DNA of 64,000 nt from a virus (taxonomy: Duplodnaviria; Caudoviricetes), in IMG/VR virus record IMGVR_UViG_3300009678_001573, positions 1-64,000 of that record; one strand, 5' to 3'. How positions within the stretch are numbered: the first letter of the stretch is position 1; each line of letters starts with the position of its first letter. The translations under genes and the position numbers were made by a program. Below are positions 2,919 through 64,000 of this stretch, in pieces. The notes below the pieces were generated by a model. That model searched no databases. It had not been told where the DNA came from and was given only the letters and a program-made list of their open reading frames with translations.

Positions 2919-5900
2919 ATGAGTCATTTTTTTGGAAGGAGATTTGTATCTAGCACCAGTACAGACGGCTATGGTGTATCGGACCACGGCGATCTTACCG
3001 GTCTCTATCCAGATGATGACCATCCACAGTATTTAATCACTACGGCTGTAAGGACTGAAGCCTCACCTACCTCCGGAATCATTAAGACTGATTTAGGCGC
3101 CGGTGATGTATTTTCCCTTACGAATGCTGGTAGTGGCGCTGCCCTATTTATTCGACAAACTGGCAATACCACCAACGCTGATGCCGCGCTTGATATTGAT
3201 AATTCAGACAATTCTGGTAGAGGTTTAAGCGTATTTAGTACCACAGCAGTTCCTCTATTACCGCTTGTTCAATTCTCTGCTCTAGACGAATCTTTTGACG
3301 AACCGGTTTTATTAATTACCCATGCTAATCCGAGTGGTCTTGGCATAAAAGTATTAGGCGATGGTTATTTATCTGGGCATTTGCTTGGTCCGCAGTCAGT
3401 TCAATTCACTAGTCTTAATTATAACCCGGTTGATATAGGCGAAACAGGAATATATGTTGAAGGCGAACCAGGTATATTTTATTTCGTAGATAAAGACGGA
3501 AGAAGATATACATTCGGTGACGTAAATCTATTAGAAGGTGATGGCATTGATATCAGAGATATTGATGGCCTAACTGAAATATCTGTAGATGTAAGCGACC
3601 TATATGGCACTGGACTCGGAACAGAAGTTGGATTTGATGGTTATCTAAATCTACGTCTTGATGCCGACGCCTCAATGATTTCTTATGACGACACAGATAA
3701 TACATTCGTCATAGGCAATACTGTACAAGAAGCTCTAGATGCCATTGATGGTTATTTTCAACGATCTTGTGACATTGTTAGAATACATAAGTTAGGTTCT
3801 GCGGCGGTTGATGCCCCCTTTAATTCTGTATATACACTTGATGGTTATACTTACGATGTAGGACAAAATAAATTAGTTGTTGCTATAAATGGTCTAGTAC
3901 AAAATACACCAACTGACTACGTAGAATTTTCAGAATCAGCTATAGAATTTTCTGATCCATTAGACGATGATGATGAAATAGATATAATTATATTGCCCTG
4001 TGGTATAGGGGCATCTATGACTTCAGGTAGTTCTGGTGGAGCGGACGATACTCTTCAAACAGCTTACGATAATAGTCCTAGTGGTGCTAAAAATATAAAT
4101 GAAAATGATGGGCAAATTACCATCACTCAATTATCTGCATCTGGTTCAGTACTGAGGCTAATAAGCAATTCCTCTCTTACCACAGCCCTAAACGTTGATC
4201 AGGCTGGTAGCGGTACAGGAATCACTGTTAAGTCAGTTGATGAAACGAATTCTAGTTTATTAATACAAAAAGACGCGCCAAGTCGCAATTCAATAAAAAA
4301 TTCTGTAATAGTAGAAAGAACAACCTCTCATGTTTCTGGTGGTTTAACTGGAATTGGTTCTGCCATTCTCACTAGATTAGAAAGCACCGGAACCAACTTA
4401 TTTAGTGCTAGTAGAATAATTACAGGAACAGAAAGTGCAGCAGATTCCATTGAGGACACTTTTCTAGCAGTAGAGCTTTCTAACGATGGCATTCTACAGG
4501 AAAACTTACGACTCACTTCTATCGGTAATCTGGGATTGGGAACCACCTCGCCTAATGATTTTAAATTACAAGTCGCCGGAAATGTTGGCCCGGACTCAGA
4601 TAATATATTTGATTTAGGATCTTCTTCTTTAAGATGGAAAGATGGATATTTTGGGCCAGGCAGCATTCATATAGGAACTGGTAGGGTATTTGTAAGTGAA
4701 GAAGATAATGAACTTTATTTCAGACAAAATAATACTTCATTTAATTTACTTAGTCCAACAAGATTGTTAGAATTTGAAATAGATAGTTCTACATTGGAAG
4801 ATGGCTATGCGCTAACATTTAATGCGACCACTAACACATTAGAATTTAAAGATCCTACTGAGGGATTTTCTATAGATATTCCAGATCCATTTACTCCTAT
4901 AGATGGAACTTGGAATGTTGTAGGTAATATTTCTGTTCGCGGCTCTAGTGGTGGCACAAGTAGCGAACAATTTGGTGAAGGAGCCTTGGCTGCCGGCACA
5001 CTTTCAGTTGCCGTGGGGGCTTTAGCGTCTGCATCGGCAGATAATACTACTGTTGTAGGTTATGATGCGGAAGCAACAAGTTCTGGATCAGTTGCTATTG
5101 GACGAATAGCACAGGCGAGTGGTTTTGGGAATATAGCCGTAGGCCAAGCGGCTCGTGCTGGTGGAAATGGTGGTACGGCCGTGGGTGATAATGCTAATGC
5201 CGGATTTACAAATACCGGCTCAACCCCATTTGGTGTTTCTACTGCGATAGGCGGTAATGCTATAGCTACTGGCGGCCAAAGTGTTGCAATTGGACAATCT
5301 TCTTCAGCCACTGGACAGGGAGGCGTAGCGATAGGACGTGGGACCTCATCAGGAACCGGAGATTTTAATACTGCAGTAGGTCGCGCATCAAGGACCAACA
5401 CTTCTGGTGTGGCAAGGGCAAGCGTTTTTGGGTTTTTGTCTGTATCTGATTCGTCTGACGGCATATCTATAGGTGCCAACTCTTCTGTTGGCACTACAGC
5501 TATCGGTAGTATTGCCATTGGTAGTGGTACCACAGTTGGTAATGGCGGCGCAGGATCTATTGCTATAGGATTTGGTGCCACAACAAATACATTTGCTAAT
5601 GCCTTAGCCTTAGGTAATGGGGCTCAGGCATTTAGCAATAATCAGGGCACTATAGGACTACCAAATATTCCTATTGATTTATTAATTTTTGGAAATTTGG
5701 GGTTAGGTATTTCTCCTGTAGCAGTACAAACTTTTAAATTAGAGATAGCAGGAGGTGTAGGCCCCAATGTAGATGATGCCTATGGTATTGGTTCACCAAG
5801 TAATAGATGGCGTGATGGGTATTTTTCTAACGATTTGTATGTATCAAGCAAAGTACGATCAGGAATTAATAAAATATATGCTTCTATAAATATTCCAATA

Positions 5901-6026
5901 TTATCGGCCGATCCTCTGATTTTTGACGATGGGGATATATGGATAACTGATATAGAAGATGTAAAGAAAATTAAAGTAAGAATAGGCGAATCTACCTATT
6001 CTACAACATTAACATTGGAGATTTAA
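2919..6026 (+). CDS. Virion fibre/adhesin protein with YadA-like head repeat block
   Basis: 1035 aa. DHGDLTGL..DDHPQY and TVQEALDAI fibre motifs, DLGSSSLRW connectors, and (S/T)(V/T)A(I/V)G..A.A repeats at about 4960-5680. 8 DGY. Confidence 0.75.
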   Translation: MSHFFGRRFVSSTSTDGYGVSDHGDLTGLYPDDDHPQYLITTAVRTEASPTSGIIKTDLGAGDVFSLTNAGSGAALFIRQTGNTTNADAALDIDNSDNSGRGLSVFSTTAVPLLPLVQFSALDESFDEPVLLITHANPSGLGIKVLGDGYLSGHLLGPQSVQFTSLNYNPVDIGETGIYVEGEPGIFYFVDKDGRRYTFGDVNLLEGDGIDIRDIDGLTEISVDVSDLYGTGLGTEVGFDGYLNLRLDADASMISYDDTDNTFVIGNTVQEALDAIDGYFQRSCDIVRIHKLGSAAVDAPFNSVYTLDGYTYDVGQNKLVVAINGLVQNTPTDYVEFSESAIEFSDPLDDDDEIDIIILPCGIGASMTSGSSGGADDTLQTAYDNSPSGAKNINENDGQITITQLSASGSVLRLISNSSLTTALNVDQAGSGTGITVKSVDETNSSLLIQKDAPSRNSIKNSVIVERTTSHVSGGLTGIGSAILTRLESTGTNLFSASRIITGTESAADSIEDTFLAVELSNDGILQENLRLTSIGNLGLGTTSPNDFKLQVAGNVGPDSDNIFDLGSSSLRWKDGYFGPGSIHIGTGRVFVSEEDNELYFRQNNTSFNLLSPTRLLEFEIDSSTLEDGYALTFNATTNTLEFKDPTEGFSIDIPDPFTPIDGTWNVVGNISVRGSSGGTSSEQFGEGALAAGTLSVAVGALASASADNTTVVGYDAEATSSGSVAIGRIAQASGFGNIAVGQAARAGGNGGTAVGDNANAGFTNTGSTPFGVSTAIGGNAIATGGQSVAIGQSSSATGQGGVAIGRGTSSGTGDFNTAVGRASRTNTSGVARASVFGFLSVSDSSDGISIGANSSVGTTAIGSIAIGSGTTVGNGGAGSIAIGFGATTNTFANALALGNGAQAFSNNQGTIGLPNIPIDLLIFGNLGLGISPVAVQTFKLEIAGGVGPNVDDAYGIGSPSNRWRDGYFSNDLYVSSKVRSGINKIYASINIPILSADPLIFDDGDIWITDIEDVKKIKVRIGESTYSTTLTLEI

Positions 6027-6027
6027 T

Positions 6028-6243
6028 ATGGCAAAAGAATTAGATTGGGTATCATTTAATTTCAATGGTACAGAGGGAGCAGATACTGGTGTGACTCTTA
6101 CAGCCTGTATTTGTGATTCAGTAGATGATAGTATGAAAAAAACAGTTACCATGGCATGTGCTTTACCTACCGAAGGTCAGGCCTACGATGTTTGGCGTAC
6201 TGCCCAGATCGATGCCCTTAAAACGGCAGAAGGTATTTCTTAA
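6028..6243 (+). CDS. Small hypothetical protein (possible fibre assembly factor)
   Basis: 71 aa, SD GGAG, starts 1 nt after the fibre gene stop. Function inferred from position only. Confidence 0.5.
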   Translation: MAKELDWVSFNFNGTEGADTGVTLTACICDSVDDSMKKTVTMACALPTEGQAYDVWRTAQIDALKTAEGIS

Positions 6244-6280
6244 AAATAGCCGAAATAAGTAATATTTACGGCATTTAATC

Positions 6281-6300: not shown

Positions 6301-6330
6301 GTAAGAGCTGTGGTGTAGGATTTCGTGAGA

Positions 6331-7272
6331 ATGGCTACCACACAACCAACATCCCGACAGTTAAAAGGACATTTTAATGCCCTTAGAGCTACCAAATCGC
6401 ATTCTCTTGCACAAACTATCGATATTGCTGCGGGAAATTACGGTTCTGGCAAGACTTTTAATGGCATAGTTGATATTTCCCATCCTTCTTGGATTGGGGC
6501 TACGGATGCCTTTTATATATACATAGATCAGAATGAAGACCTGATTTTAGAGAATAATGTTGGTTTTCCACCCATTTCAACTAGAATAGCTAAAGTTATT
6601 ATAGATTCTGGTAATATAGTTGAAATCATTGATGAAAGATCAGAAGTAAATGGTATTACAGATGGCTATGAAGTAGCCTTTGATGATACCAGCACTAATA
6701 TAGCTGTAGGCCCATCTGTTCAAAGTGCTATTGAAGCGCTAGATGCTTATGTATCGTCTATAGGTACATCAGTCGCCTCAAACATTCAAAAATACTTAGA
6801 TTTTGATATCGAAGGCGGCTCAAGAAATGGGCAAGTTAATTCTGGGCAGGTATCTAATAATCCTGTATTAGAACTTCCGGAAGCTGTTTCGGGAGTAGCC
6901 AGAATTCGATACTCGGCATCAATTCCTAAAGATTATGTTATTGGAACTGATATAGTTATTAGAACTTTTTGGTCCCCAGATAATACTAATACAGGTGATG
7001 TTGCCTGGAGACTTAGATATAGACTTATTGATAGTGATGCGGAAAATATAGATAATCCATTCACTACCGTAAGTTATTTGCAAGCAGCGCCAGGAATAGC
7101 TAATAGGCTAACAAATACTGGTGATAATTTATTAATATCAGCGGCAGATATAAGTCCGAACGATATACTAATAATAAATATAGAACGAGAATATATAGTT
7201 ACAGATACATATGATTCGACTGTTAGAGTCCATTTGATTAGAATGGAATATATGGGAAGAGGAGTCACTTAA
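6331..7272 (+). CDS. Virion structural protein with C-terminal beta-sandwich domain
   Basis: SVQSAIEALDAY motif. The C-terminal domain (WSP.N.NTGDVAWRL.Y ... AADIS ... VHL) is paralogous to the C-terminus of 7288..10395. ATG 6331 chosen over GTG 6325. Confidence 0.6.
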   Translation: MATTQPTSRQLKGHFNALRATKSHSLAQTIDIAAGNYGSGKTFNGIVDISHPSWIGATDAFYIYIDQNEDLILENNVGFPPISTRIAKVIIDSGNIVEIIDERSEVNGITDGYEVAFDDTSTNIAVGPSVQSAIEALDAYVSSIGTSVASNIQKYLDFDIEGGSRNGQVNSGQVSNNPVLELPEAVSGVARIRYSASIPKDYVIGTDIVIRTFWSPDNTNTGDVAWRLRYRLIDSDAENIDNPFTTVSYLQAAPGIANRLTNTGDNLLISAADISPNDILIINIEREYIVTDTYDSTVRVHLIRMEYMGRGVT

Positions 7273-7287: not shown

Positions 7288-10200
7288 ATGGCATTTAATT
7301 TGGAAAATGCGGTTCAGCAAGGCTTTAACCGTGACGTTGATAGTAATGACTATAATGTTAAGGCACAAAACCTTGAGGTTGTCCTTGGTGATGCTGGGGG
7401 CGGAACTGAATTTAGAATTTTAGATTCAGATAATGTCGCAATCGCGGTTGCTGACTCCGACGGCTATTTATCGATTGCCGGGCAGGCGGAGGTTCATGGT
7501 GGCCACATATTGGTACAGGCAGATGTTCTAACCAATAACGAATTTATTACCCTCCAGGATCAAACAGGTTCTGCGGGCATTTATTTGTTTGACGCAAATC
7601 CTGATGGTGCCTACACGGCTAATAAAGGTTCTTTTGGTACCAGCTATAGTGATGGTTACTTCTATGTAAATTTCGATGGCTTGATGCAATGGGAAAGAAT
7701 TGCTCTTGCTTCTCAGGTTCCTGCATTAGCTAATGCAAGCAACACCCTACACTCAGTATATAAGAATGATTTGGATGGTGGTGATGCAACTATTACAACC
7801 GATGCAACTGATGGTGATGTAATAATTGCTGGTACAGAACAATTGAGAGTTACAGCTAGCGGTGGTTTTGACGTAAATACCACTGGCAGCTTTAGTTTAG
7901 ATGCTGACACTGATTCCAGCTTAAATGCAACAAACGGCAATCTTACCTTATCTACTACATCTACTGGTGATGTAATAGTTATCGTTCCAAATACCGGTGG
8001 AGATTTCGTAGTTCAAGAAGCCTCTGGTGTCGAATATCTCAGAGCAGAAACTGTATCCAAGGAAATGAGACTTGGTAGTATAGCTACTCCAATATTAGTT
8101 AGAGTACTAGACGATTTGGTGGTTGATGGTGATTTCACCGTTAATGGTAACACTACTTTCGTAAATACTGAAGACCTCTATGTTGAAGACCGTATGGTGC
8201 GTTTAAATGTTGGTGCTGCACCTTCATTCTCTGGCACAACCGGTATTGAAGCCGAAGTTGGATCAGATGGATATGTAGAATTACATTGGGACGATGCTGA
8301 CGGTCGTTGGGAGATTGGTATTGACCGAAGTGTAACTCCAGAAGGACAAACTTTCAGACCACTTCCTTACTTGGCTGCAAATCCAGCTATTCTAGATTTA
8401 AGTTCAACTGGCGACGATGGTTTCCCAACTGCGGGACCAAATGTAACCGGTGCCTCTATTATTAATACTAACTTCACTAACTTCCCATATTCCTTCGGGG
8501 ATTATATGGCTGACGACTCTGTTCAATCAGCATTGGAAGCTATTGATGCTTACTTTATTGACTTAGCAAGCTTCATAGATACATCTAATAATACTACCCT
8601 ACATCAAGCATATAAGAACGATGATGATGGCGGTGATGCGGTAATTACAACTGACGCGACAGATGGTGCTGTTGTAATCGCAGGTACTGAGAAATTGCAA
8701 GTAACGGCAACTGGCGGCATTGATTTAGATACTGTCTTTGATATGGATGGCTCAACATTTGATGTTGATTTGTCCGGCGCCGCTACTATAGACGCTGCTG
8801 CTGCATCTAACTTTACAGTTGCGGGCGCAGATCTTACTTTAAGCACCACTACTTCTGGCGATGTAAATGTTGTCGCCGCAAGTGATGTAGATATAGATGG
8901 GACCAATGTATTAGTTGATGCTACTGCGGCAATTTCGTTAGATGCTGGTGCTGCTTCAAACTTTACAACCGCCGCAGGTGCTTTAACTCTAGATGGCGCT
9001 GGTGGAATTGTTCTAGATGGTAATGGTTCTAATGTACGTCCTGCTGTAGATGATACCGATTCACTTGGTACCGCATCGTTTGGTTGGACAAACGTTTATA
9101 TGAGAAGCGTTACAGACACCTTAACCGTGGGGTTGAGTGATGCTGGTAGCCCTCTAGTTCATAATGCATCCTCTGGCGCCGAAGCTATAGGAACCAATCC
9201 AACCAACTTTAATGTTTTTGGATCATTCATGCCTACTAGCTCCGTGCAGTCTGCTCTTGAAGCAATTGACGGTTACTTAGCTAGCATTAATTCAGATTCT
9301 GTTACCCTCCATTCTGCATACAAGAATGATATAGATGGTGGTGATGCGATTATTACTACAGATACCCTTGATGGTTCCGTAGTAATTGCTGGTACCGAAA
9401 GCTTATGGGTAACTGCTGCTGGTGGTATCAATCTTGATTCAGGATTTGATATGGACGCCACTTCATCATTTGATGTTGAGGTAACTGGTGCTGGATTTAG
9501 TTTAGATGCATACAGTGCTAACTCAAATATCAGTGTGAGTGGTGCTGACTTAGTTGTAGAAACAACCACTTCAGGTATCCTAACTCTAACTGGTGCTACT
9601 GGCGTAGTAATTGATGGTACGGGCGACAATGTTCGTCCGGCTGGTAACGGTACTGATACACTTGGTACTTCAGGATTTGGTTGGGCTGATATCTATTTAA
9701 GAAACGTGCCCAATACTGCAACTGTAGCTCTACGTGGTGCTGGTGATGCTTCGGCTCCAAATACAACTTCAGGTGCGCATGCAGTTGGTACTAATGCAAG
9801 TAACTACTTAACCTTCGGCGCTGACATGACAGATCAAACTGTTCAGGCTGCCCTTGAAGCAATTGACGGTTACTTAGCAACCTTTAGTTTGAATGATTTT
9901 GATACTGTTTATACTCGTAAGGATTGGTTTGATATCAATGGTGCAGTGTTGAATGGTAACGTTCAATTGGCTTCATTAGCTGGTACACCCACCTTAAGAT
10001 TTATCGAAGGTGCTACAGCTCGTGCCGGTTGGACTATGCCAGTTCCTTCAGATTGGGACGGAACAAGTGATATTAATGTGAATGTCATTTGGTCCCCTTC
10101 AAGCAATAATACTGGTGACGTTGCCTGGAGACTTGAATACAAGACATTGTCTCTAACTGAAGCCGCAAATGGCGCAACTACCGATGTGGATTATGATCAG

Positions 10201-10395
10201 GCTGGTAACGGTACTGCCGATACTCTACAAAGCACAGGTTTAAACTTAGTAATAGCTGCGGCAGATATCTCAGTAAGTGATGTCTTAATCGTAGTTAACT
10301 TGGTGCGAAGAGGTGCAGCTGGTGCAGATACCTTTACTGGAAATGCTCAAGTGCATCTGGTGCAATTCAGCTACAGTGCCCAGAATATAGTGTAA
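7288..10395 (+). CDS. Virion fibre protein with three internal repeats
   Basis: 1035 aa, SD GGAGG. The motif GDFTVNGNTTFVNTEDLYVEDRMVRLN is typical of phage fibres. Three copies each of TLH..YKND.DGGDA.ITTD..DG.V.IAGTE and VQ.ALEAID[GA]Y. Confidence 0.7.
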   Translation: MAFNLENAVQQGFNRDVDSNDYNVKAQNLEVVLGDAGGGTEFRILDSDNVAIAVADSDGYLSIAGQAEVHGGHILVQADVLTNNEFITLQDQTGSAGIYLFDANPDGAYTANKGSFGTSYSDGYFYVNFDGLMQWERIALASQVPALANASNTLHSVYKNDLDGGDATITTDATDGDVIIAGTEQLRVTASGGFDVNTTGSFSLDADTDSSLNATNGNLTLSTTSTGDVIVIVPNTGGDFVVQEASGVEYLRAETVSKEMRLGSIATPILVRVLDDLVVDGDFTVNGNTTFVNTEDLYVEDRMVRLNVGAAPSFSGTTGIEAEVGSDGYVELHWDDADGRWEIGIDRSVTPEGQTFRPLPYLAANPAILDLSSTGDDGFPTAGPNVTGASIINTNFTNFPYSFGDYMADDSVQSALEAIDAYFIDLASFIDTSNNTTLHQAYKNDDDGGDAVITTDATDGAVVIAGTEKLQVTATGGIDLDTVFDMDGSTFDVDLSGAATIDAAAASNFTVAGADLTLSTTTSGDVNVVAASDVDIDGTNVLVDATAAISLDAGAASNFTTAAGALTLDGAGGIVLDGNGSNVRPAVDDTDSLGTASFGWTNVYMRSVTDTLTVGLSDAGSPLVHNASSGAEAIGTNPTNFNVFGSFMPTSSVQSALEAIDGYLASINSDSVTLHSAYKNDIDGGDAIITTDTLDGSVVIAGTESLWVTAAGGINLDSGFDMDATSSFDVEVTGAGFSLDAYSANSNISVSGADLVVETTTSGILTLTGATGVVIDGTGDNVRPAGNGTDTLGTSGFGWADIYLRNVPNTATVALRGAGDASAPNTTSGAHAVGTNASNYLTFGADMTDQTVQAALEAIDGYLATFSLNDFDTVYTRKDWFDINGAVLNGNVQLASLAGTPTLRFIEGATARAGWTMPVPSDWDGTSDINVNVIWSPSSNNTGDVAWRLEYKTLSLTEAANGATTDVDYDQAGNGTADTLQSTGLNLVIAAADISVSDVLIVVNLVRRGAAGADTFTGNAQVHLVQFSYSAQNIV
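7744..9430 (+). repeat. Three dispersed copies of a ~40-aa module (starting about 7744, 8596, 9304)
   Basis: TLHSVYKNDLDGGDATITTDATDG / TLHQAYKNDDDGGDAVITTDATDG / TLHSAYKNDIDGGDAIITTDTLDG. Confidence 0.85.
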
Positions 10396-15049: not shown

Positions 15050-15050
15050 G

Positions 15051-17701: not shown

Positions 17702-17716
17702 AAGTTGGAGGCTCTA

Positions 17717-53557: not shown

Positions 53558-56500
53558 ATGACTATATACCCCGAGGCACTTGATACTGATTTAGAATTAC
53601 CAAGAATAGATGAAAACGTTACTGAAATAAGTGGCGATGCTATCAATTCTTTGCGTGATGCTGTATTCGCTATTGAAAGAGCAATCGGAATAGACCCACA
53701 AGGCCATGCAGCAAGTTTAGTAGCTAGAATAAATAATGTTATAGATGCCGATGGTAACATAAAAACATCGGCTTTGGCCAGCAGGGGTTTAGTTACTCTC
53801 CCAATTACTAACGCTCACGTTGGCGATAATGCTGCTATAGAAGAATCAAAATTAGATCTAGATTTTACTACCGCATTTTTAAAAGGTCGTGTTGATTCCA
53901 ATGCCATAGACATAGCTGCGGTCGAGGACAGTCTAAATGCTTTCGCTGCCCAAACTTCATTGCACTTTACCGGTGATGGAGATAGGCACGATGGCTATCA
54001 AATCGATATTTTAGATTCCATACGTGGAGTTGATGATGTAGAAAGTGCTTTGCATCAGGTTAATAATGCCTTTACTCAGCACGAAAATACTGTAGTAAAT
54101 GTTCATGCTGCCGCTGGTATATCTGTTAATAACGAGTTTCAAACCATTTCTGCAGAGAATGTTCAAGATGCTTTAGTAGAATTAGACAACGCAAACGTGG
54201 GTGTTATTGATATACATCAAGACGCCATGCATGATAACGCTGCCGTAATTAATGTTAGAGGGCACCAAGGCGACCAGGGTAATCTCAGCGAAACTATTTT
54301 AGCAAGTACAATTTACCAAACAGATATTACTGAAGCAACTAACATTTTACAAGTAATGCGTCCAAATGTTGCGAGAGTTACTAGTAAGAATATAGACCCT
54401 CGCTCTTTATCTATAGGCGTTTCACAAAACTTACGAATAGCGGCAGGCGGACTTAATAGAAGCCCACTTGATGTGAATCTATCCTCTATAATTCCAACAG
54501 AGGATATAGATACAATTGTATCTAAAATAAACGAAACCGCACGAACTGAACACTACCCTATATCTTCCTATAACACCGGTGGCAAACTTACGATAGCTCA
54601 TAATCTGCCAGGTGAACAATTTACAATACAAATTTCTGATGCTGTTTCATTTCCTGCCGCAGAGGCTCTAGGATTTGGTGACGTTGTCTCAACTGTATTT
54701 GAATGGTCAGATAATCATCACTCTGCCTATGTAGGTGGAAAGAAAATATTAGACCTCAAAACATTATTAGACATTAGTCACACTCATGGTTCTGCTTCTG
54801 CCACTATAGCACCAGGATTAGGTGACCTATCAGCTTTTGGTTTAGATAACGATAATACTGGCGGCGGTGCAGGCAGAGTACTATGTCACATTACTAATCA
54901 CGATACGGATTCAACCGCTAACGGAACTTATTATATAACAACTTATCCCACTACAAGCACATTTGTCTTAAATGAAATTATTCCTGCCGGCGTATTTGAT
55001 TTAGAAATAGTTGCAGACTCTACTAACTTCATAAATAGTTCTAATGGCGAAATTTTCGATATATTTTTAGAAGATGTAGTAGATGGCTATGCCGCTGTAA
55101 CCAAATCCAAGAGAGTTGCCTATGGCCCCATCGCCGGCGTAAGCATTAGAGCAGTATCAAATACCTTTCCAGATCAAGGAATGGAATGGCAGATAACCGA
55201 TGCTACCTATATTAAATTTATTCAAGACGGCGATGATGGCGAAATAGTCACAATTCCAGCCGGGTTTCAGGGACATCTTAAGGTTTATGCCCCAGATAAT
55301 ATCAATAGTGCTATAATAGAAGTTACTGGCAATCCTGGCAGTTCAGCTCAAACAATTACAATGACGCCGTTTGCCGAAACAGATGATTCTTTATATATTT
55401 CTTCCGTACATTACTCTGGAAATTTTGGAACCTCTGTACTTAAATTTGTTACAGATAAAAGAAAAATAGGCGGCTCGGTCGAAAATAAAACAGAAAATAA
55501 ATTAAGTCCACTACCATTTGAAGAAAGTATTAAGGATTTGCGCAATAATGGCATAGTGAGAGGATTCGAATTTGTTTCATCTGGCAGCAGCTCTTTTACT
55601 GTCAGGGGCGGAAGAGCATATGTCGATGGCCGCAAATTAGATGTTCCTACCAAAGAAATTGTAGTTACCGATTTTAGTCCCGCTAATAAGCTTTTACTAC
55701 TGGACAGAGATGGTAATTATATTATTAAAGATGAATTTGACCCAGGATATTCTTTCGCAGAATTAACACAAGGAGAAGATTCATATGGTGATCATTTAGG
55801 TCTTGCTACTATATTGGAATTTTCTACTGATGGTGCATCCATAACACCAGATGGTTATTTTACAGATCGTCGTTTAATGATAGGCAAGATAGACAAACGT
55901 ATTCTTGATAAAATTGGTGGTTTAAATCAAAGAGTGGCGGAAATTGAGAACACAGTTGCTGGTAATTTTTGGGGAAATATAGATGCGTATCAAGATGGAA
56001 ACATATCTAATATTACTTTAGCAACCAATCCAGGGCTTACCGCTTTAGATGAAGTTGGGTTTGCAGGTGGAAATAATCTAGTAACTACAAGAAGATTCGA
56101 AGTCATAGATACTTGGACAGCCACAAATCACACTATGTTCCGTGCTTTAGGCGCATCTCATATTAATGTTTTCGTAGAAGTTAGATATTCCGGGCAAGGT
56201 GGTGGTGCTTTTGGAACTAGCGGAGAATTCACTTTACAAATAGGTTCGAGTTTTGATGTTGGTTTAGATAGCGTGACTACTACAGAGGACTATGCTATAG
56301 TTAAAACTATAGATGATGATGTATTACCTTCTAATTCAGTAAAAGAAAGATATGTTATATCTGTTCCTCTTGATGTAGTGGGTGTACCAACACACGCATT
56401 TTTCGATATTAGGCCGAGAGTTAAAATTACAGGTTCTACTTATGCAGATGGCGGAAGCGGTGGAGATGTAAATCCGATAATACAAATTTTTAATATGCGA

Positions 56501-56590
56501 ATAGTTACATCTAGCTATAGCATAGCAGGCAACATATTAGGAGATAGCACTAATCAGACATTAGCAACGACTATTGGAGATGTGCTTTAA
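53558..56590 (+). CDS. Large virion structural protein, paralogue of 56600
   Basis: 1010 aa. Collinear similarity with 56600 (TIYPE.LDTDLE, AAIEESKLDLDF, HDGYQI, IAHNL.GE.FT, DLR..G..RGF, GG.AYV.G). Confidence 0.65.
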   Translation: MTIYPEALDTDLELPRIDENVTEISGDAINSLRDAVFAIERAIGIDPQGHAASLVARINNVIDADGNIKTSALASRGLVTLPITNAHVGDNAAIEESKLDLDFTTAFLKGRVDSNAIDIAAVEDSLNAFAAQTSLHFTGDGDRHDGYQIDILDSIRGVDDVESALHQVNNAFTQHENTVVNVHAAAGISVNNEFQTISAENVQDALVELDNANVGVIDIHQDAMHDNAAVINVRGHQGDQGNLSETILASTIYQTDITEATNILQVMRPNVARVTSKNIDPRSLSIGVSQNLRIAAGGLNRSPLDVNLSSIIPTEDIDTIVSKINETARTEHYPISSYNTGGKLTIAHNLPGEQFTIQISDAVSFPAAEALGFGDVVSTVFEWSDNHHSAYVGGKKILDLKTLLDISHTHGSASATIAPGLGDLSAFGLDNDNTGGGAGRVLCHITNHDTDSTANGTYYITTYPTTSTFVLNEIIPAGVFDLEIVADSTNFINSSNGEIFDIFLEDVVDGYAAVTKSKRVAYGPIAGVSIRAVSNTFPDQGMEWQITDATYIKFIQDGDDGEIVTIPAGFQGHLKVYAPDNINSAIIEVTGNPGSSAQTITMTPFAETDDSLYISSVHYSGNFGTSVLKFVTDKRKIGGSVENKTENKLSPLPFEESIKDLRNNGIVRGFEFVSSGSSSFTVRGGRAYVDGRKLDVPTKEIVVTDFSPANKLLLLDRDGNYIIKDEFDPGYSFAELTQGEDSYGDHLGLATILEFSTDGASITPDGYFTDRRLMIGKIDKRILDKIGGLNQRVAEIENTVAGNFWGNIDAYQDGNISNITLATNPGLTALDEVGFAGGNNLVTTRRFEVIDTWTATNHTMFRALGASHINVFVEVRYSGQGGGAFGTSGEFTLQIGSSFDVGLDSVTTTEDYAIVKTIDDDVLPSNSVKERYVISVPLDVVGVPTHAFFDIRPRVKITGSTYADGGSGGDVNPIIQIFNMRIVTSSYSIAGNILGDSTNQTLATTIGDVL

Positions 56591-56599
56591 AGGTGAAGA

Positions 56600-59500
56600 A
56601 TGGCAACTATTTATCCTGAGAGACTAGATACAGATTTGGAAATTCGCAGAATTGATGACGACATTACTGAAATGGGTGGTGATGTTGTTAATTCTTTGCG
56701 CGATGCTGTATTCGCTATTGAGGGTGCTATAGGTATAGAGCCACAGGGAAATAAAGCTAGCCTTGTGGATAGAATAAATGTAGCTATCGATGACAACGGC
56801 AATATAAAAAGATCTGCGTTAGAAGACCTAGGACTGCTCACTCTACCGATTGTTAATAGACATATTGCTTTTAATGCTGCTATAGAAGAATCAAAATTAG
56901 ATCTAGACTTTGGAACGATAACGCTTAAGAATCTTATTGACTCTTTGCGCGTAGATATGACCGCCGCTCAGTCCAGTATTGCCGGCGGCGCAGCGGCATT
57001 TAGCTTACACGTTCTTGGGCAAGACCATTTTCACGATGGCTACCAGATTAAAATTGACGTAGAAAACGACAATGGGGTCGCAGGATTAGTGGCTGAAACT
57101 GTCGGTGATGCTATTAACGAACTTAGCATTGTTCTATTAGCTGGTGATAACACACGAACGCCACATATAAATCTTGACCTTCCATCATCTGTAAAGCACG
57201 AAGCCTCTGAAATAGCTGTTGATACTATTAATTTTGAGTCTATCGACAGATCAGTTACTTCAGTTCAACAGGCCTTTGATAGCATTGACGCCGCACAAGG
57301 CATTCTAGGAATTACACACGTAGATAATTTCCATGCTAACGGTATACTAAAAGATATCAGTTCTGGAACATTCTTTAATGAAAATCGCTTATTGTTGGGC
57401 CCAATTGTAGGCATATCATATACCGAAAATACTAGTGTAATAAAAATACCAGGCGTGACCTCCTTTTCTACCTTAGGTATTACCGCAGGAAGTATATTGG
57501 AAATAGTTTCAGCCGGCTTACAAGATGTTGGGACTTATCAAATACGAGCTGTTGGCCCTCTTCAAGATGGCTCAACACTTGGTGATTTGCCAGTTCTTGC
57601 TTCTGATGAACTAGCGGTATTTCATATATTTGTAGAAACCTTATCAGACAGCGAAGAAGCCGTTGCTAATATATATGAACCAACATCTGTATCAAGCGAA
57701 GGCGCACCATTAGCTTGCGTGGTACGAAATAATCAGACAATTGTAGATACAATATCAATCCTTCCTCCTGACGCAGCTAGAGTAGTTAGCGTTGGTTTTA
57801 ATAGTAGCATATTAAATTCTGATGGATATGAGATTGCCGTAAGAGTTGGTATAGGTCAAAATAATTTTAGAGAACTAACTATACCAGACTTGAATTTGGA
57901 GCGACTAGGCACAAATCAAGCCCAACCAGTTGACGCCAAGTCCGTTGCAGAAAGAATTAACGCCTATGTATCTAGCCCAACCCTAGGATTCAATTTTCCA
58001 ATCACAGCTTACAGAATAGGCAATGAATTAGCAATTGCTCATAACTTGGTGGGCGAAGAATTTACACTAGAGATTTTGGACGGCTATACTGGCAACTTTG
58101 CGTTAGGCCTGGATGCTTATGGTGCCGATGTAGTAGATAGAGTTGTTGCAGGAAACATTAATAACATTTATTCTGTGAATGGCGTTTCGCTATCTTCACT
58201 GCGAATCGCATTTGATGGCTACACTAATATTAGCTCTGCTACAGACACATTTTCTTTATGGACGAATGAAGGCGCTATGGTTAATCCATTGCACCTTGGT
58301 ATTTCACAGGGTTCAGTAATACATATAACTGAACATCCAACTTTAGAGACTAATGGAAGTTACACATTATTTGGAGCAACTTCTACAACAGTATCTTTAT
58401 TTGCAGCAGAACCAATAGATGCACCGACTAACCCAACTACATTTAAAGTATTAGTTTCTGATTCAAATGTGCCTTTGTCGGTATTAGAAAGTGCCGAAAC
58501 TGATAATGGCTTGGTAGAATTGTATATCGATTCAGATGGTAAAGTATTAGTTCATGAAAGATTTTCTTATGGAACCAATTTAGGTTCTGCGGTTGAAGTA
58601 ATAGACATATCTAATAACTTCCCAGTTGGAAACTTTACACTTAATGTTGGAACTACAGCCAGTGAAGCTTTATTTACTTTAATAGAGGACTCACTACCGG
58701 GCGAAACAGTAACTGTTCAAACTGACTTTAAGGGAGTGTTTAAGCTTTATCATCCGAACAATATAGATTATGTGTTGGTAAAAGTTACCGCCGGAACAAT
58801 AGTTGATGGTACAGAAATCATAGCAGTTCAACCACCACTTAATTATGATGAATCATTTCAATTGTGCGCCTTACATTTCAACGGAACCCTTTCTATTACA
58901 AATACAATAGATAAGCGCTTCTTTGGTAATTTGAGTGCTAATCAGGTAAGAGATGACTTCATTGAATTATTCAGTCAACGTCCTATTTCTGATTTGCGTT
59001 CAGACGGCGTCGCTCGTGGCTTTGACGTAATGGACATTCCATTTGTAGATAGTATTACTCAAATGCAGGCCCTACCTCTACGCGGCGGTATAGCATATGT
59101 GAACGGAGTAAGGCTGACGGTCGAAACTCAAAAAGTCATTGTTCCTTCGTTTGACGAAGAAGGAACAATGCTTAATAACGCAAGAAGAATAATCGGAATT
59201 AACGAATTTGGTTCGATTAGGGTATTCTCTGATGAGCTTGGAGAATTGCTATCCGATGGTTATAATGCAAGTATAGAGTTTGGAAAAATTCTACCTTTAT
59301 ACCAAATTACTATAAATAATGGCGTAATAGACGCAGTAACTGATTTGCGCTTATTCATTAATAACTTGGATAACAAGCTTGAATTAATAGTGGATGAAAC
59401 AAATAACGTAGTAGGTAACTTCAGAAGTCTAGAAGGCGCTTTGTTATACGCTTCTTCATATCCACACAGAGAGCATCTAACTATTAAAATTATCAATTCG

Positions 59501-61687
59501 GTTTATCCAAATGGGCAAGTTATAGTTCCAGATGGTATTTCTATCATAGGTGGCGCACCATATGGTGGTAATGAAAGACATCAAATTGTAAATACTTTAG
59601 AATTAGGAAATTCCTTTTTGGTGTTGTCAGGCAATAACAGATTAGAGAATATAGAAATTGTTAGTGAGCTAGCAACTACAAACGGCGCTCTAGTAGAAGT
59701 GGCCAATGGAAACGTGAATATAGAAAAATGTTTATTACGATTTAACGAAGATGTTACATCAACAGATTCTGACGTTGGCATCTTGGTTAGTGTAAATGCA
59801 AGCCAAGATGTTAAAATAGTAAATAATAAAATAGATACTGTGTATTCTGGCATTGTAAGCTTGGAAGGTTGCAACAGACTCGTGGTTAAAGAGAATGTCA
59901 TAACTAACTTGGCTGGAACTGGTGGGGTTTCTAATGGTATCAAGATTGGAAGTGTGAGCAGAGAAGTTGCTAATGTTTCGATTGCTGATAATATTATAGA
60001 AGTTCCGAGTGTAGTGTTGGAATCTGATATACGTGGTATTTTTGTTGATATCGGCGAGACTATAGAAGAATTAAGAATAGTTAATAATTCTATTGTTCAT
60101 ACTGCTAGTAACACAATGACTAATGGTATTAGAATAGAGAATGAGTTGGCAACAGGAAATAAAGCCGCCAAAGTGTTCATACTCAATAATCAAATACAAG
60201 GCATAGCGTTGGATGATAACGACGTATGGGGCATTTATATCTCAAGCGTAGAAGATGGTAAGATATCCAATAACATGATTTCAGATGTTGGAGTTTCAAC
60301 TGATAACACAGATGTGGCTTGCATTGGAATTGGTGATGATGTAGATTTTGCTGATGTTACTGGAAATATTTTAAAGAATTGTGACGTAACTCGGGGAATT
60401 GAAGTGACAAGCGCCGGCCAAGTAAATATATCGGGCAATACACTAGATACTTTGGGCGCAAACGCTTTCTATATAAATGGTAATGCAACGCATTCTTCTG
60501 TATCAAATAATATTTTAGTTGGGCCGGGCGACTATGGTATAAGATGGACTGGAACCAATTCAAAGATTTCAGATAATAATTTAAGTCAACCAGGCGATGC
60601 TACCGAGTATGCTTTCAGTAGTTATGCTATTTATGTATTAACTAGTGATGTTGATGTTATGAATAATACTATCACAGGCATGGTATATGATGATAATGCG
60701 GTTACGAAGCCCGTAGGTATTACTAATGCTACAGTTGGAAGAGATAGAATTAAAATTATAGGCAATACAATCTCTGGCAGCTTTATGTATAGACCAATAG
60801 AATTATTTGGTGAAGGACACTGCGTATCTAATAATAGAATATTTAATGATGAAATAATAGATGATAATGATACAGACTTTATAGTTCTTAATGGAACTAC
60901 TAACTCATTGGTGATGGGCAATACCATTCAGGGCGATGGGCGTTATGCATTCTCTAATCTAGATTCTTCCGACGCAGCCACTACGGTATCTAATATAACA
61001 ATTTCCAACAATATCATAGACCCAAGTCCAGGTAGTATAGGGCAGATAAGCGGTTCATTTAATTTAAATAGCTCTTCTGTTTCTAATTGTTTTATATCCG
61101 GCAACAGACTTCCGGTTAATAGCGCAAGTGTTACTGGCGATGACTTAATAGGAAGTACAACTGCATTAGATTATGGCGATAATACTAATACTATTGGATT
61201 GAATGCTGGGCTTATGGATATCAGAAATATCAATGCTTCTTTAGCAACTACATCATACGATTCGGCAACGAGCAATCCACATTGGGCTATGAAAGACTCT
61301 GCCAATTATTGGGAATTATTCAATACAGCTTCTTTGACTAGAAATTTATATTTCCCAATTAATGGATTACCCAATGGTGCTCAATTGCTATCAGTTCAGG
61401 CACAGGGATTATATAATAGTCAAGGAACGCTAACTATTCAGGCATTTAGAAAGAATAGATCAGCATTATCATCCAGTGCAATAAGCTCCTCTGATACTAT
61501 AACTGACGCAACTTTTGGTATCACCGGCAATACAGATGGTTTAGTTAATACTACAACCAATGATGCTGATGGAGAAATCATTAATTATTATGATTTTCAG
61601 TATTATGTAACTATAACTCATACTGGTGGAGCAGCCGCGCCAAGTGGTAATAGAATACACGGCTTGACAGTAATATTTAGATATTAA
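56600..61687 (+). CDS. Large virion structural protein with C-terminal beta-helix
   Basis: 1695 aa. The N-terminal ~930 aa are paralogous to 53558, followed by I.NN.I parallel beta-helix repeats. Confidence 0.68.
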   Translation: MATIYPERLDTDLEIRRIDDDITEMGGDVVNSLRDAVFAIEGAIGIEPQGNKASLVDRINVAIDDNGNIKRSALEDLGLLTLPIVNRHIAFNAAIEESKLDLDFGTITLKNLIDSLRVDMTAAQSSIAGGAAAFSLHVLGQDHFHDGYQIKIDVENDNGVAGLVAETVGDAINELSIVLLAGDNTRTPHINLDLPSSVKHEASEIAVDTINFESIDRSVTSVQQAFDSIDAAQGILGITHVDNFHANGILKDISSGTFFNENRLLLGPIVGISYTENTSVIKIPGVTSFSTLGITAGSILEIVSAGLQDVGTYQIRAVGPLQDGSTLGDLPVLASDELAVFHIFVETLSDSEEAVANIYEPTSVSSEGAPLACVVRNNQTIVDTISILPPDAARVVSVGFNSSILNSDGYEIAVRVGIGQNNFRELTIPDLNLERLGTNQAQPVDAKSVAERINAYVSSPTLGFNFPITAYRIGNELAIAHNLVGEEFTLEILDGYTGNFALGLDAYGADVVDRVVAGNINNIYSVNGVSLSSLRIAFDGYTNISSATDTFSLWTNEGAMVNPLHLGISQGSVIHITEHPTLETNGSYTLFGATSTTVSLFAAEPIDAPTNPTTFKVLVSDSNVPLSVLESAETDNGLVELYIDSDGKVLVHERFSYGTNLGSAVEVIDISNNFPVGNFTLNVGTTASEALFTLIEDSLPGETVTVQTDFKGVFKLYHPNNIDYVLVKVTAGTIVDGTEIIAVQPPLNYDESFQLCALHFNGTLSITNTIDKRFFGNLSANQVRDDFIELFSQRPISDLRSDGVARGFDVMDIPFVDSITQMQALPLRGGIAYVNGVRLTVETQKVIVPSFDEEGTMLNNARRIIGINEFGSIRVFSDELGELLSDGYNASIEFGKILPLYQITINNGVIDAVTDLRLFINNLDNKLELIVDETNNVVGNFRSLEGALLYASSYPHREHLTIKIINSVYPNGQVIVPDGISIIGGAPYGGNERHQIVNTLELGNSFLVLSGNNRLENIEIVSELATTNGALVEVANGNVNIEKCLLRFNEDVTSTDSDVGILVSVNASQDVKIVNNKIDTVYSGIVSLEGCNRLVVKENVITNLAGTGGVSNGIKIGSVSREVANVSIADNIIEVPSVVLESDIRGIFVDIGETIEELRIVNNSIVHTASNTMTNGIRIENELATGNKAAKVFILNNQIQGIALDDNDVWGIYISSVEDGKISNNMISDVGVSTDNTDVACIGIGDDVDFADVTGNILKNCDVTRGIEVTSAGQVNISGNTLDTLGANAFYINGNATHSSVSNNILVGPGDYGIRWTGTNSKISDNNLSQPGDATEYAFSSYAIYVLTSDVDVMNNTITGMVYDDNAVTKPVGITNATVGRDRIKIIGNTISGSFMYRPIELFGEGHCVSNNRIFNDEIIDDNDTDFIVLNGTTNSLVMGNTIQGDGRYAFSNLDSSDAATTVSNITISNNIIDPSPGSIGQISGSFNLNSSSVSNCFISGNRLPVNSASVTGDDLIGSTTALDYGDNTNTIGLNAGLMDIRNINASLATTSYDSATSNPHWAMKDSANYWELFNTASLTRNLYFPINGLPNGAQLLSVQAQGLYNSQGTLTIQAFRKNRSALSSSAISSSDTITDATFGITGNTDGLVNTTTNDADGEIINYYDFQYYVTITHTGGAAAPSGNRIHGLTVIFRY

Positions 61688-62287: not shown

Positions 62288-63073
62288 ATGGTTTCTATTT
62301 ACAGTCATAGAGTTATTTCTGATATCTTTAACTTGGAACATGTTGTTCAGCAAGTTGGAATGGTTGCGACTAAAAACACCTTAATAGATACCTTACGCGA
62401 TATCTTTCGACAAGATCGCGAATGGAAATATGTCCAAGATGTCTTTGGCTTTCCTAAGACACCCAGTCATCTTGGCTTAGCTCCCGATGCTGGTTTAAAC
62501 GATGAAGAAACTACACGCATATTTATAGGCAGTACTTATAGGTATGATGTTAAGTTTAATCCCTCTATCATAGTAAAAAATACAGGCAGCACCTATAATC
62601 CCATTTCCTTCAACCAAGATTTCTTAGGCGTCGTCTATAGAAAGGAGTCTTTATCAGATGGCTATGGCAATAGAACTGTCGTAAATACTCCTGCATTTAA
62701 CGTATTGGTCGGCGCTTGGGAACAAACTTACGAAATCAAAGTAATAGCCGAGAGTGAAGTGGATCGTGAAGAAATAACCGATATAGTAATGGTTTCTCTG
62801 ATAGGTTCTAGACGCAGAGAATTAGAGCAAGCCGGTGTATTCATTAAGACAATAAGGTCTGGTGGCGAGACAGAAGAGCCCTATGCCAATGACTTCCTAT
62901 ATACTGTATCTATTAATATTGACGTTAGAACTGAGTGGAAGATACATATTCCTATAAATGATGTATGTGAGCGTATAGCGTTATGCCTAACTTTTAACGC
63001 CCTTGATACTGATCCGCCTGCAAATGGACTAGATATCAATGAGCAGCTTACTCAGGCCGATGAATTAAGTTAG
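62288..63073 (+). CDS. Putative tail terminator/tail completion protein
   Basis: Immediately precedes the sheath gene. PSIIVK...GAWEQTYEIKVIAESEVDREEITDIV fits the tail-terminator pattern. Confidence 0.55.
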   Translation: MVSIYSHRVISDIFNLEHVVQQVGMVATKNTLIDTLRDIFRQDREWKYVQDVFGFPKTPSHLGLAPDAGLNDEETTRIFIGSTYRYDVKFNPSIIVKNTGSTYNPISFNQDFLGVVYRKESLSDGYGNRTVVNTPAFNVLVGAWEQTYEIKVIAESEVDREEITDIVMVSLIGSRRRELEQAGVFIKTIRSGGETEEPYANDFLYTVSINIDVRTEWKIHIPINDVCERIALCLTFNALDTDPPANGLDINEQLTQADELS

Positions 63074-63091
63074 TTAAATGGCTTAAAAATC

Positions 63092-63118
63092 TACTAATAT
63101 TATGAAATATAGTATAAG
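63092..63118 (+). promoter_or_regulatory. Putative late promoter (TACTAATA) upstream of the sheath gene
   Basis: CTACTAATATTATGAAATATAGTATAAG; a second TATTAATA lies at 63262-63269. Confidence 0.5.
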
Positions 63119-63347
63119 TTAGGTGTGTATCATTTTGTCGGCGATTAGTATAAGAAAGTGTTAAAGTTTCTGCCGTATATTGTTTTTTGGTCATTATTAT
63201 AGGCTAATAATACGAAAAGACAGCATATTTTAATGTGTAAAATGATAAAAATCGCCCAAAGTATTAATACGGCGAATAAAACGAATAAGAAAACTGTACT
63301 AAAATAGTCAGGGAAAGAATAATTAAATCTAATGAGAGGTTGCTAAT

Positions 63348-64000
63348 ATGCCAAATATTCCGGGGATCGCTGGCTATGTTCAGCCCAACGTATTTAGCCG
63401 TGTACGCACCATCCGTCGATCGGTTTCAATTCCAGGCGGCCTGCGTATTCTTGCTATAATGGGTCTGGGCGAACGTCAGGAGACAATTGTATTAAACGCT
63501 GAAGGAGGCGGTCAAGACGGTGTAAACCCTGACTACGCTGCTTCAACCAGTCCAGATGGTAGACACTTTGTTCTTTCAAGAACGAGTCTAATTCCAAAAC
63601 GCACTACGCTATTATTGGACGGTATTCCGCTTCGGGGTCTTGAACAGACAATCGACCTGGATGCATTCGATGGGCGCTATGATTTCAGATTAGAAACAGA
63701 AACTGGCCGTATAGAACTTCAACGAGCCTCTCTAGTTGACCAAGGAGGAACTTTCGTAGTTCCCTCTGGCTCCAATGTTGGAGATGGTACGGTTACAGTA
63801 GAATTGATTGATGCTAATGCGCCAACTGAGACTTGGACTATTAGAGCAACGAGCGTTATTCGAGATGCCTACGGCGATCCGGTTCCCGAAAATGCTACGT
63901 TTACTGCTACTGGTTCGGTATCAGGTCAGCCACTGGACGCTTACGGTGCTCCAGTTGTATTCCTCAGCGATGGTAGCACAAGGGATAACGGAATTATTCG
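63348..64000 (+). CDS. Tail sheath protein, N-terminal part (runs off the window; absent from the ORF track)
   Basis: SD GAGAGG and ATG 63348, open to the window end. Translates as MPNIPGIAGYVQPNVFSRVRTIRRSVSIPGGLRILAIMGLG..., a sheath-like Y..P.V(F/Y) start. Follows the terminator gene. 2 DAY. Confidence 0.7.
   Translation, partial: MPNIPGIAGYVQPNVFSRVRTIRRSVSIPGGLRILAIMGLGERQETIVLNAEGGGQDGVNPDYAASTSPDGRHFVLSRTSLIPKRTTLLLDGIPLRGLEQTIDLDAFDGRYDFRLETETGRIELQRASLVDQGGTFVVPSGSNVGDGTVTVELIDANAPTETWTIRATSVIRDAYGDPVPENATFTATGSVSGQPLDAYGAPVVFLSDGSTRDNGII

Follow-up and report, generated by a model that had tools for sequence, protein, structure and literature searches.

The 64,000-nucleotide stretch of DNA analysed here (the window; positions 1 to 64,000 of the Caudoviricetes record IMGVR_UViG_3300009678_001573) encodes phage fibre and baseplate proteins in which the tripeptide Asp-Gly-Tyr (DGY) recurs far above expectation. 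DGY has a minor form, DAY, after which G or S usually follows, and selection on this lineage-specific tag acts on the peptide. The tag characterises a clade of uncultured huge phages with a distant relationship to Bacillus phage G, and it is restricted to peripheral virion proteins, i.e., fibres and the outer baseplate. As to its role, we tentatively read DGY as a recognition or acceptor site for a trans-acting factor, most concretely one that would O-glycosylate the tyrosine, and we hold this reading at somewhat less than even chances. The window is part of a 95.9-kb IMG/VR record (referred to as the contig), which is itself a slice of a 468-kb ENA contig.

An independent set of open reading frames (ORFs, named by their first position in the window) reproduced exactly the 88 DGY and 17 DAY that had been counted by hand in a preliminary description of this DNA. 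At least one DGY is found in 19 window ORFs, and the numbers given earlier for single ORFs were likewise recovered: 11 in ORF 11742, 10 in 22345, 9 in 27381, and 8 each in 2919, 14997 (previously listed as 15051), and 32523. Shuffling residues within each protein yields 4.0 ± 2.0 DGY (maximum 11 in 2,000 shuffles), in agreement with the earlier rough estimate of 4 to 5, and 3.3 ± 1.9 DAY. With a z-score of 42, DGY ranks at the top of all 8,000 tripeptides, and the runner-up AIG reaches 10.5. Asp precedes 88 of the 114 GY dipeptides in the window. Neither DGF (8 versus 6.1 expected) nor DGW (0) is raised; Phe or Trp cannot replace Tyr.

The excess arises at the level of the peptide, as had been suggested from the free variation of codons: the motif codons mirror genome-wide usage and comprise 14 different 9-mers. 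On the plus strand of the contig, the degenerate pattern GAYGGNTAY is seen 95 times, matching the count of in-frame DGY; the minus strand has it twice. A DNA-level cause of the motif is ruled out by the genome-like codon usage together with this strand and frame specificity. Duplication explains part of the count but not all of it, also as anticipated. About half of the sites lie in paralogous modules, and single linkage over self-BLAST resolves the 113 D[GA]Y sites of the contig into 57 components, with 41 singleton DGY. When later copies of self-BLAST high-scoring segment pairs were masked at E <= 1e-3, 41 DGY were left versus 2.2 ± 1.6 expected, and masking at E <= 10 left 11 versus 0.94. 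Because 41 DGY survive masking, the enrichment is not lost on de-duplication. The chance that the count is an artefact of duplicated modules, amino acid composition, or a DNA-level motif is practically nil: the paralogous half of the sites speaks for it, and against it stand the masked counts, the codons, the independent relatives in which DGY is also the top tripeptide, and the chance-level counts in 23 unrelated phage loci and four outgroup genomes (below).

The tag is confined to one class of proteins. Counts confirmed that DGY is absent from the capsid protein and from the SNase, HNH, cold-shock protein (Csp), amidase-like, zincin-like, and sulfotransferase ORFs. The tail-core block (63–82 kb of the contig) has one DGY in about 6,000 aa. 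With capsid and tail-core ORFs at chance level, the earlier view that the tag is applied across the virion exterior was too broad.

The same pattern is found in relatives. In a 206-kb relative (G001) whose capsid protein is 93% identical to that of the window and which is syntenic across the whole contig, the DNA pattern occurs 165 times on the coding strand versus 5 times on the other. Its DGY are confined to fibre and baseplate ORFs, with 57 in a 3,634-aa ORF and 33 in a 3,811-aa ORF, and its non-structural ORFs have 2 in about 25,000 aa. A coding-strand excess is also present in 13 of 16 further large relatives (capsid 72–87% identical). Homologues of the 11742 protein are almost all DGY-rich, and DGY is the top tripeptide in three syntenic loci (z-scores 19 to 35). 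A HMMER scan of 1.84 billion representatives retrieved 1,920 relatives of this protein, the best 135 of which are bimodal: 53 are DGY-rich and 82 have 0–2 DGY. In the relatives L003–L005 and in 11742 homologues we also observed a second recurrent motif, LDGYHPD[VI]TG.EHY.QHS, through which EHY, YHP, and HPD are enriched; its His-rich repeat starts could bind metal.

Beyond the clade, 23 IMG/VR loci that share only a C-terminal domain with the window have 0–2 DGY each. The fibres of Bacillus phage G, whose gp27 is 54.6% identical to the major head protein of the window, have 14 DGY where about 2 would be expected; one recurring DGYWYVRG module accounts for half of the 14, and DGY does not rank among the top tripeptides there. 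No DGY excess was found in three other huge phages (LR745208, Rctr197k, and Tunturi_5). The 23 loci and these four outgroup phages rule out that DGY is a generic property of phage fibres. Orthologues of ORFs 53558 and 41651 could not be detected in phage G, megablast and tblastn searches with ORF 11742 gave no match among cultured phages, and a literature search pairing 'DGY' with 'tail fiber' and 'phage' turned up no earlier account of it. A compact sister lineage (G012, G016, G017, and G006, with loci L132–L137 and L147–L150) has capsid proteins 72–74% identical and keeps the capsid-to-tail gene order, and its orthologues of the DGY-bearing baseplate proteins have few or no DGY. This lineage is without the ~45-kb fibre array; fibre expansion and heavy DGY use coincide.

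All long ORFs of the window are on the plus strand. Some 50 kb code for very large proteins for which family annotation is nearly lacking, apart from YadA-head repeats, one beta-helix, and weak Mtd_N and endosialidase-stalk matches. The motif-bearing ORFs, the head protein, and the sulfotransferase are as follows.

1..1026, plus strand: major head protein, 5'-truncated at the window edge (phrog_2522, E 2e-78); 0 DGY, a negative control.
2919..6026, plus strand: fibre protein of 1,035 aa with YadA_head repeats (PDB matches to YadA-like heads); 8 DGY, the N-terminal one at residue 16, and 1 DAY, including two RW[KR]DGYF sites.
6325..7272, plus strand: 315-aa protein; 1 DGY and 1 DAY, both kept in G001.
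7288..10395, plus strand: fibre protein of 1,035 aa; 5 DGY and 2 DAY at VQSALEAID[GA]Y helix ends, 6 of the 7 sites kept in G001.
10440..11726, plus strand: 428-aa protein with a weak neck-protein PHROG match; 1 DGY.
11742..13190, plus strand: fibre protein of 482 aa; 11 DGY, which hold 11 of its 21 Tyr; seven ~27-aa helical repeats that each close in [LI]DGY, then DGYIAFFT and DGYILTSD strands, then a C-terminal beta domain.
13190..14461, plus strand: 423-aa protein; 1 DGY (residue 14) and 1 DAY.
14465..15049, plus strand: 194-aa protein; 1 DGY.
14997..17033, plus strand: fibre protein of 678 aa; 8 DGY, in three LDGY helix repeats and as singletons.
19739..20626, plus strand: conserved virion protein of 295 aa; 1 DGY (PDGYWNDRW), kept in G001.
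22345..26661, plus strand: fibre protein of 1,438 aa; 10 DGY and 1 DAY; its N-terminal DGYSIDGYLIPAVDNVHNLGTPDNRW module is homologous to stalk motifs of endosialidase, T5 pb1, and cyanophage fibres.
26661..27371, plus strand: sulfotransferase of 236 aa, flanked by two DGY-rich fibre paralogues; 0 DGY.
27381..30764, plus strand: fibre paralogue of 1,127 aa; 9 DGY.
30841..32511, plus strand: fibre protein of 556 aa; 4 DGY and 1 DAY.
32523..39389, plus strand: fibre protein of 2,288 aa with long YadA-head-like arrays (PF05658, 171 bits); 8 DGY and 3 DAY, in DAY[SG]xGSxxxRW[KR]DGYF modules.
39781..41538, plus strand: baseplate-like protein of 585 aa; 1 DGY and 1 DAY, both kept in G001; the sister lineage has TQD/SDE/LSD and SGR/TGR at these sites.
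41651..44314, plus strand: 887-aa protein; 4 DGY, the N-terminal one at residue 15, and 1 DAY.
44330..52183, plus strand: spike or fibre protein of 2,617 aa; 6 DGY and 1 DAY.
53558..56590, plus strand: outer baseplate-like protein of 1,010 aa; 3 DGY, all 3 kept in G001, and 1 DAY; sister-lineage orthologues have 0–1 DGY.
56600..61687, plus strand: 1,695-aa paralogue with a right-handed beta-helix; 5 DGY and 1 DAY, all 6 kept in G001.
62288..63073, plus strand: 261-aa protein; 1 DGY, kept in G001.
63348..64000, plus strand: first part of an 856-aa protein that extends to contig position 65918; 2 DAYG turns.

Nearly all fibres have a DGY within their first 15–60 residues. For the adaptor, neck, terminator, and sheath labels of the preliminary description, PHROG gave only the weak neck match of ORF 10440. 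Small enzymes are scattered among the large ORFs (an SNase, an HNH-like, a C92 amidase-like, and a zincin-like protein, a cold-shock protein, and the sulfotransferase). A block within the fibre region (17036–22341) is conserved in all relatives; it encodes a 221-aa ORF, the C92 amidase-like protein, the cold-shock-domain protein, two proteins of ~290 aa, and the zincin/eCIS_core-like protein. In the relatives, a Metallophos protein sits in the place of the 221-aa ORF, and there is an extra patatin. The long YadA-head-like repeat arrays of 32523–39389 and 2919–6026 occur in phage fibres from which the autotransporter anchor is absent.

Residue specificity was assessed in a set of 105 relatives' proteins (41,487 aa). 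DGY occurs 375 times versus 13.7 expected, and 22% of all Tyr are part of a DGY. Two further tripeptides are mildly raised, DAY (27 versus 9.8) and DLY (20 versus 9.8), and the near neighbours are at or below expectation: DGF 4/10.6, DGW 2/4, NGY 8/10, EGY 8/7.9, and DNY 3/7.6. The residues that usually stand in for one another in turns and caps (N or D for G; N, S, or T for D; F for Y) are thus not tolerated, either in the window or in the relatives. In BLAST alignments with relatives, DGY is kept at 745 of 882 aligned sites, compared with 42% identity elsewhere, a figure that is biased because the motif itself can seed an alignment. Where DGY is replaced, DAY, DSY, or S/T/N/A-GY is seen, but DGF never. 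Thirteen globally aligned non-repeat orthologue pairs with G001 (60% identity) keep 32 of 37 D[GA]Y sites (86%) versus 69% of other Tyr. When 15 homologues of the 11742 protein are aligned, the DGY columns are the sole invariant columns.

The tripeptide is a derived state. At 13 lineage-specific sites that differ between the window and G001, the counterpart is a polar tripeptide or an indel. Where flanks align with the sister lineage, its members have HAK/YAK/RAQ for HDGYQI (56600 orthologues), TGL/KGN/KGL for PDGYW (19739 orthologues), TDY/DSF for SDGYG (62288 orthologues), and DSE/DSS/DSN/DSA/DAS followed by G for the DAYG turns of the 63348 protein. Similarly, a widespread GIGT module has R/K/Q/N-GY outside the clade and DGY inside it, and where the solved stalks of endosialidase, T5 pb1, and cyanophage fibres have RWxxVY, this clade has RW[KR]DGY. 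Since the sister lineage and the modules outside the clade carry other residues, the fold does not need DGY, and the clade installed the tag at substitution-tolerant positions and then retained it. The residues of the sister lineage at these positions are often polar, which suggests that the tag sites are probably solvent-exposed.

Predicted models place DGY at secondary-structure edges, and the earlier observation that it occurs in unrelated folds, often at domain edges, agrees with this. The AlphaFold2 (AF2) monomer of the 11742 protein is poor overall (predicted local distance difference test [pLDDT] 55); in it, each of the seven repeat helices ends within two residues of the D of DGY, and a strand begins at the Tyr of DGYILTSD. 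In the helical repeats, hydrophobic residues at −8, −5, and −1 make the Tyr (+2) the next seam position. Taken together, a Tyr on the hydrophobic seam and helices that end at D indicate that DGY is also a helix stop in these repeats. The 3,634-aa ORF of G001 consists in part of Ig-like repeats of ~115 aa, every one of which has a pair of DGY spaced by 23 residues, and a confident repeat model (pLDDT 92.6) has a Big_5-like or CopC-like fold. The first DGY of the model provides the last residue of a turn and the first two of a strand, and the second lies within a strand end just ahead of a conserved D..N hairpin; judged from strand alternation, core residues are in phase with the first Tyr and out of phase with the second. 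In the same ORF (locus L034), residues 1560–1593 form an acidic low-complexity segment, DGYIDGYVDVDGYIDGYFVPDGYQLDGYFDDGYDGY, that consists nearly wholly of DGY units, with eight DGY in 36 residues, and G001 has several DGYDGY duplications as well. Overall, about a quarter of the sites fit the description of a helix C-cap, in which Gly directly follows the last helical residue and is followed by an apolar residue. Such variety in local conformation favours recognition of the sequence as such over a single self-contained local fold. No solved homologue of the DGY helical repeats came up in PDB sequence searches with ORFs 11742, 22345, 2919, and 30841, which matched only YadA-like heads and weak stalk motifs, and Foldseek with the low-confidence 11742 model returned nothing at E <= 0.001.

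How the tag works can be read in several ways. The proposal of the preliminary description, that DGY is a modification sequon or a docking tag, is partly supported: peptide-level selection, occurrence in unrelated folds, tyrosine specificity, restriction to peripheral proteins, and the derived state fit it better than they fit a generic structural turn. Sulfation as the general mechanism is not supported, and the whole virion exterior is too wide a scope. We envisage that a trans-acting factor would read DGY, probably while the chain is in an extended state, that the Asp at −2 and the small residue at −1 would define the modification site, and that glycosyltransferases encoded by the phage itself would O-glycosylate the Tyr hydroxyl; in the helical fibre repeats, the same tripeptide would additionally terminate each helix. 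Glycosylation of the tyrosine specifically is a step that we put forward with reservation, as doubtful on present evidence. The most explicit version is rather unlikely as a whole: fibres and outer baseplate would be coated with glycans through the Tyr of a strict Asp-Gly-Tyr sequon by a soluble phage glycosyltransferase, and the glycans would be built by the products of an adjacent gene island.

This island begins beyond the window. A GT4 glycosyltransferase gene (contig 94698–95906) starts 36 nt past the last structural gene, and on the 468-kb contig (L046:8001–17209) it is followed by five GT2 genes and a methyltransferase gene, all co-oriented and tightly packed. Adjacency of the island to structural genes holds on the 468-kb contig, in G001, and in the relative L048. 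In G001 the island continues with Polysacc_synt_2 (PseB-like in our reading), DegT, an amidotransferase with SIS domains (GlmS-like), NeuB, a UDP-GlcNAc 2-epimerase-like protein (below threshold), a cytidylyltransferase, and a glycerophosphotransferase, genes that together make up a nonulosonic-acid pathway. With a GT4 of only 35% identity, L048 still has GT4, GT2, and a sugar dehydratase in this arrangement, and its two upstream structural ORFs have 9 and 3 DGY versus 0.4 and 0.25 expected. A GT4 orthologue was found in 10 large relatives, all 10 of which are DGY-rich, and the four outgroup huge phages have neither a GT4 orthologue nor a DGY excess. The link between island and tag is circumstantial.

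Some further features adjoin the island. Just past the glycosyltransferase genes of L048 (L048:16225–17613) are genes for a TubZ-like tubulin and a UvsW-like helicase. IMG/VR calls the 95.9-kb record a 'provirus', yet its parent is a 468-kb contig with a phage-G-like capsid gene, and the record boundary coincides exactly with the end of GT4; our guess is that sugar-metabolism genes past GT4 were mistaken for host DNA.

Several points weigh against tyrosine glycosylation through a trans-acting reader. The co-variation of GT4 and DGY contrasts a single clade with outgroups and so is effectively one event; the records are mostly fragments, on which synteny is a confounder. G006 of the sister lineage has a GT4 orthologue, yet it has 15 DGY versus 4.3 expected (75 kb) and none in its orthologues of 53558 and 56600. 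Searches of GT4 against the PDB gave generic GT-B matches only, with no specific similarity to known protein O-glycosyltransferases, and the island could act on host envelope glycans instead. The proteins themselves add to these doubts: a Tyr that continues the hydrophobic seam at −8, −5, −1, and +2 may cap the core of the helical repeats, the Tyr of the first DGY is predicted to be in phase with conserved core residues in the Ig-like model, conservation per site (32 of 37 versus 69% of other Tyr) seems higher than expected for a dispensable sequon, and the only invariant columns in the fibre alignments are DGY.

The last of these points fit an intrinsic structural edge cap, the main rival, which is doubtful in its turn. 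In such a cap, D-G would break a helix or form a tight turn and the Tyr would plug the core or clasp the chains of a trimer through Asp-Tyr hydrogen bonds, and the motif would have spread by shared ancestry and shuffling of fibre modules among the many fibre genes of the lineage. It would account for the seven 11742 helices that finish at the D, the hydrophobic spacing that sets the Tyr at the next core position, the invariant columns across divergent homologues, the 86% of sites conserved at 60% identity, the invariance of DGY among the structural residues of the Ig-like repeats, and the half of the sites in recognisable paralogous modules. There is also a precedent in the HxH boxes of T4 gp37, which were first taken for recombination motifs and later turned out to be structural iron ligands. 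Against it, sister orthologues fold with HAK, DSE, DSS, or TGL at equivalent positions, homologous modules outside the clade use R/K/Q-GY or xVY, and, unlike in classical caps and type I' turns, N or D is not tolerated at the Gly position, nor N at the Asp. Likewise, the conformations of the motif differ locally, DGY occurs in tandem (DGYx)8 arrays, and 41 sites survive repeat masking. A generic cap or turn is disfavoured because N, E, F, and W are excluded, lineages are bimodal, the positions are derived and polar, conformations differ, and arrays occur; a tag that is read in trans explains these five points and also the restriction to one protein class.

The reader need not be an enzyme. A fibre-assembly chaperone could act on unfolded chains, or a docking or cement contact could bundle fibres to the baseplate and to each other, and we regard this as improbable. 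Consistent with such a reader, the motif is limited to large peripheral proteins that need assisted trimerisation, the N-terminal DGY is present in almost every fibre, apparently buried and exposed positions would both suit recognition before folding, and small ORFs stand behind several fibre genes. A candidate reader was not identified, however, we know of no strict tripeptide chaperone code of this kind, and the N-terminal bias may just reflect conserved N-terminal modules.

More improbable still is direct ligand chemistry, in which Asp and Tyr on one face of an extended segment would bind a metal (e.g., Fe3+ or Ca2+) or host surface glycans and so provide many weak adhesion or stabilisation sites along the fibres. 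The strict need for a carboxylate at i and a phenol at i+2, separated by a small residue, suits this idea, as do the acidic DGY arrays, the analogy with the iron sites of the gp37 HxH boxes, and the Ig-like model, in which both DGY lie near an Asp/Asn-rich hairpin region (D67, D92, D95, and N99). The Tyr hydroxyl is a poor Ca2+ ligand, however, and a fixed three-dimensional context is lacking.

Tyrosine sulfation, which the preliminary description named among the possible modifications, is very improbable as the general mechanism. The protein of 26661–27371 has a real sulfotransferase fold (PF00685 at 23.2 bits with a cut-off of 22; PF13469 at 26.3 bits with a cut-off of 27; weak PDB matches to SULT1C2 and TPST1), and its gene overlaps the stop codon of one fibre gene and ends 9 nt before the paralogue, the two fibres together holding 19 DGY. 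This three-gene cassette recurs on another contig (L009:2044–2775, 57% identity), and the acidic DGY arrays resemble sulfotyrosine clusters. Yet the sulfotransferase has 4 homologues among 5.8 billion proteins, compared with the 1,920 relatives of the 11742 protein, and it is absent from the 206 kb of G001 with its ~165 DGY codings. Known Tyr sulfation sites favour Asp at −1, not Gly; here the −1 residue is Gly (Ala in the minor form) and the Asp is at −2. Rarity and absence from G001 rule out the sulfotransferase as the clade-wide writer and mark it as an accessory of its cassette. It may act locally on the two neighbouring fibres, on a glycan, or on the host surface. A literature search found nothing on phage tyrosine sulfation.

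If DGY is read in trans, it would provide a simple searchable code for which virion proteins a huge phage decorates, and a new modifying enzyme that recognises a tyrosine sequon of three residues, with possible use in glyco-engineering, would be within reach. Megaphages, like giant eukaryotic viruses, would then put self-made glycans on their appendages, which would bear on how they recognise hosts, on the stability of the particle, and on evasion of immunity or defence. Were the Tyr indeed glycosylated, DGY would be the first O-glycosylation sequon defined for tyrosine, and phages would have their first virion glycosylation system directed by a sequon. If DGY is structural, it would join the T4 HxH boxes as the second short motif of a single lineage with an organising role in phage fibres, and it would be a new signature to recognise and delimit fibre modules in more than 300 uncultured relatives. 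Either way, it is a cheap marker of peripheral virion proteins in a clade that is almost without annotation.

Several known systems resemble the tag in part. As in Schellman and alpha-L C-caps and in Asp-Gly beta-turns, Gly can come directly past the last helical residue with an apolar residue next, but these classical caps and turns accept Asn or Asp for Gly, Asn, Ser, or Thr for Asp, and Phe for Tyr, and DGY does not. Like the HxH boxes of T4 gp37, DGY is a short, lineage-specific motif that is repeated along fibres and conserved amid diverging flanks; HxH is, however, a ligand-x-ligand in one fold on a three-fold axis, whereas DGY is found in helical, beta-strand, and Ig-like contexts and in baseplate proteins. 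Short acidic sequons are known from the D/E-X-N-X-S/T of PglB, with its acidic residue at −2, and from the D-S/T-[AILVMT] of Bacteroidota. The three- to five-residue code, the Asp near the acceptor, and the occurrence in many unrelated folds, mostly in turns, are shared with DGY; the Tyr acceptor, the enzymes, which are unrelated, and the compartment are different.

O-glycosylation of Tyr occurs in bacterial S-layers, e.g., in SpaA of Paenibacillus alvei and in Thermoanaerobacter (PMC2943079), where a Tyr hydroxyl serves as glycan acceptor on a surface-array protein, as it putatively does here. S-layer glycans are transferred extracytoplasmically by an O-oligosaccharyltransferase to 2–4 sites with variable flanks (PMC2943079). 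In contrast, the phage motif is strict, with up to 11 sites per protein, and assembly is cytoplasmic, so a soluble glycosyltransferase would be needed. Closer to phages, the virions of mycobacteriophages carry glycans that glycosyltransferases of the phage attach (Freeman et al. 2023, as cited in PMC12619734). The mycobacteriophage glycosyltransferase genes adjoin structural genes and virion surface proteins are the proposed acceptors, as in the huge phages of this clade. The mycobacteriophage glycans are on the C-termini of capsid and tail-tube subunits; here, the capsid is untagged and the tail core is near chance level. The candidate acceptor differs as well, being a defined Asp-Gly-Tyr that extends over some 20 fibre and baseplate proteins.

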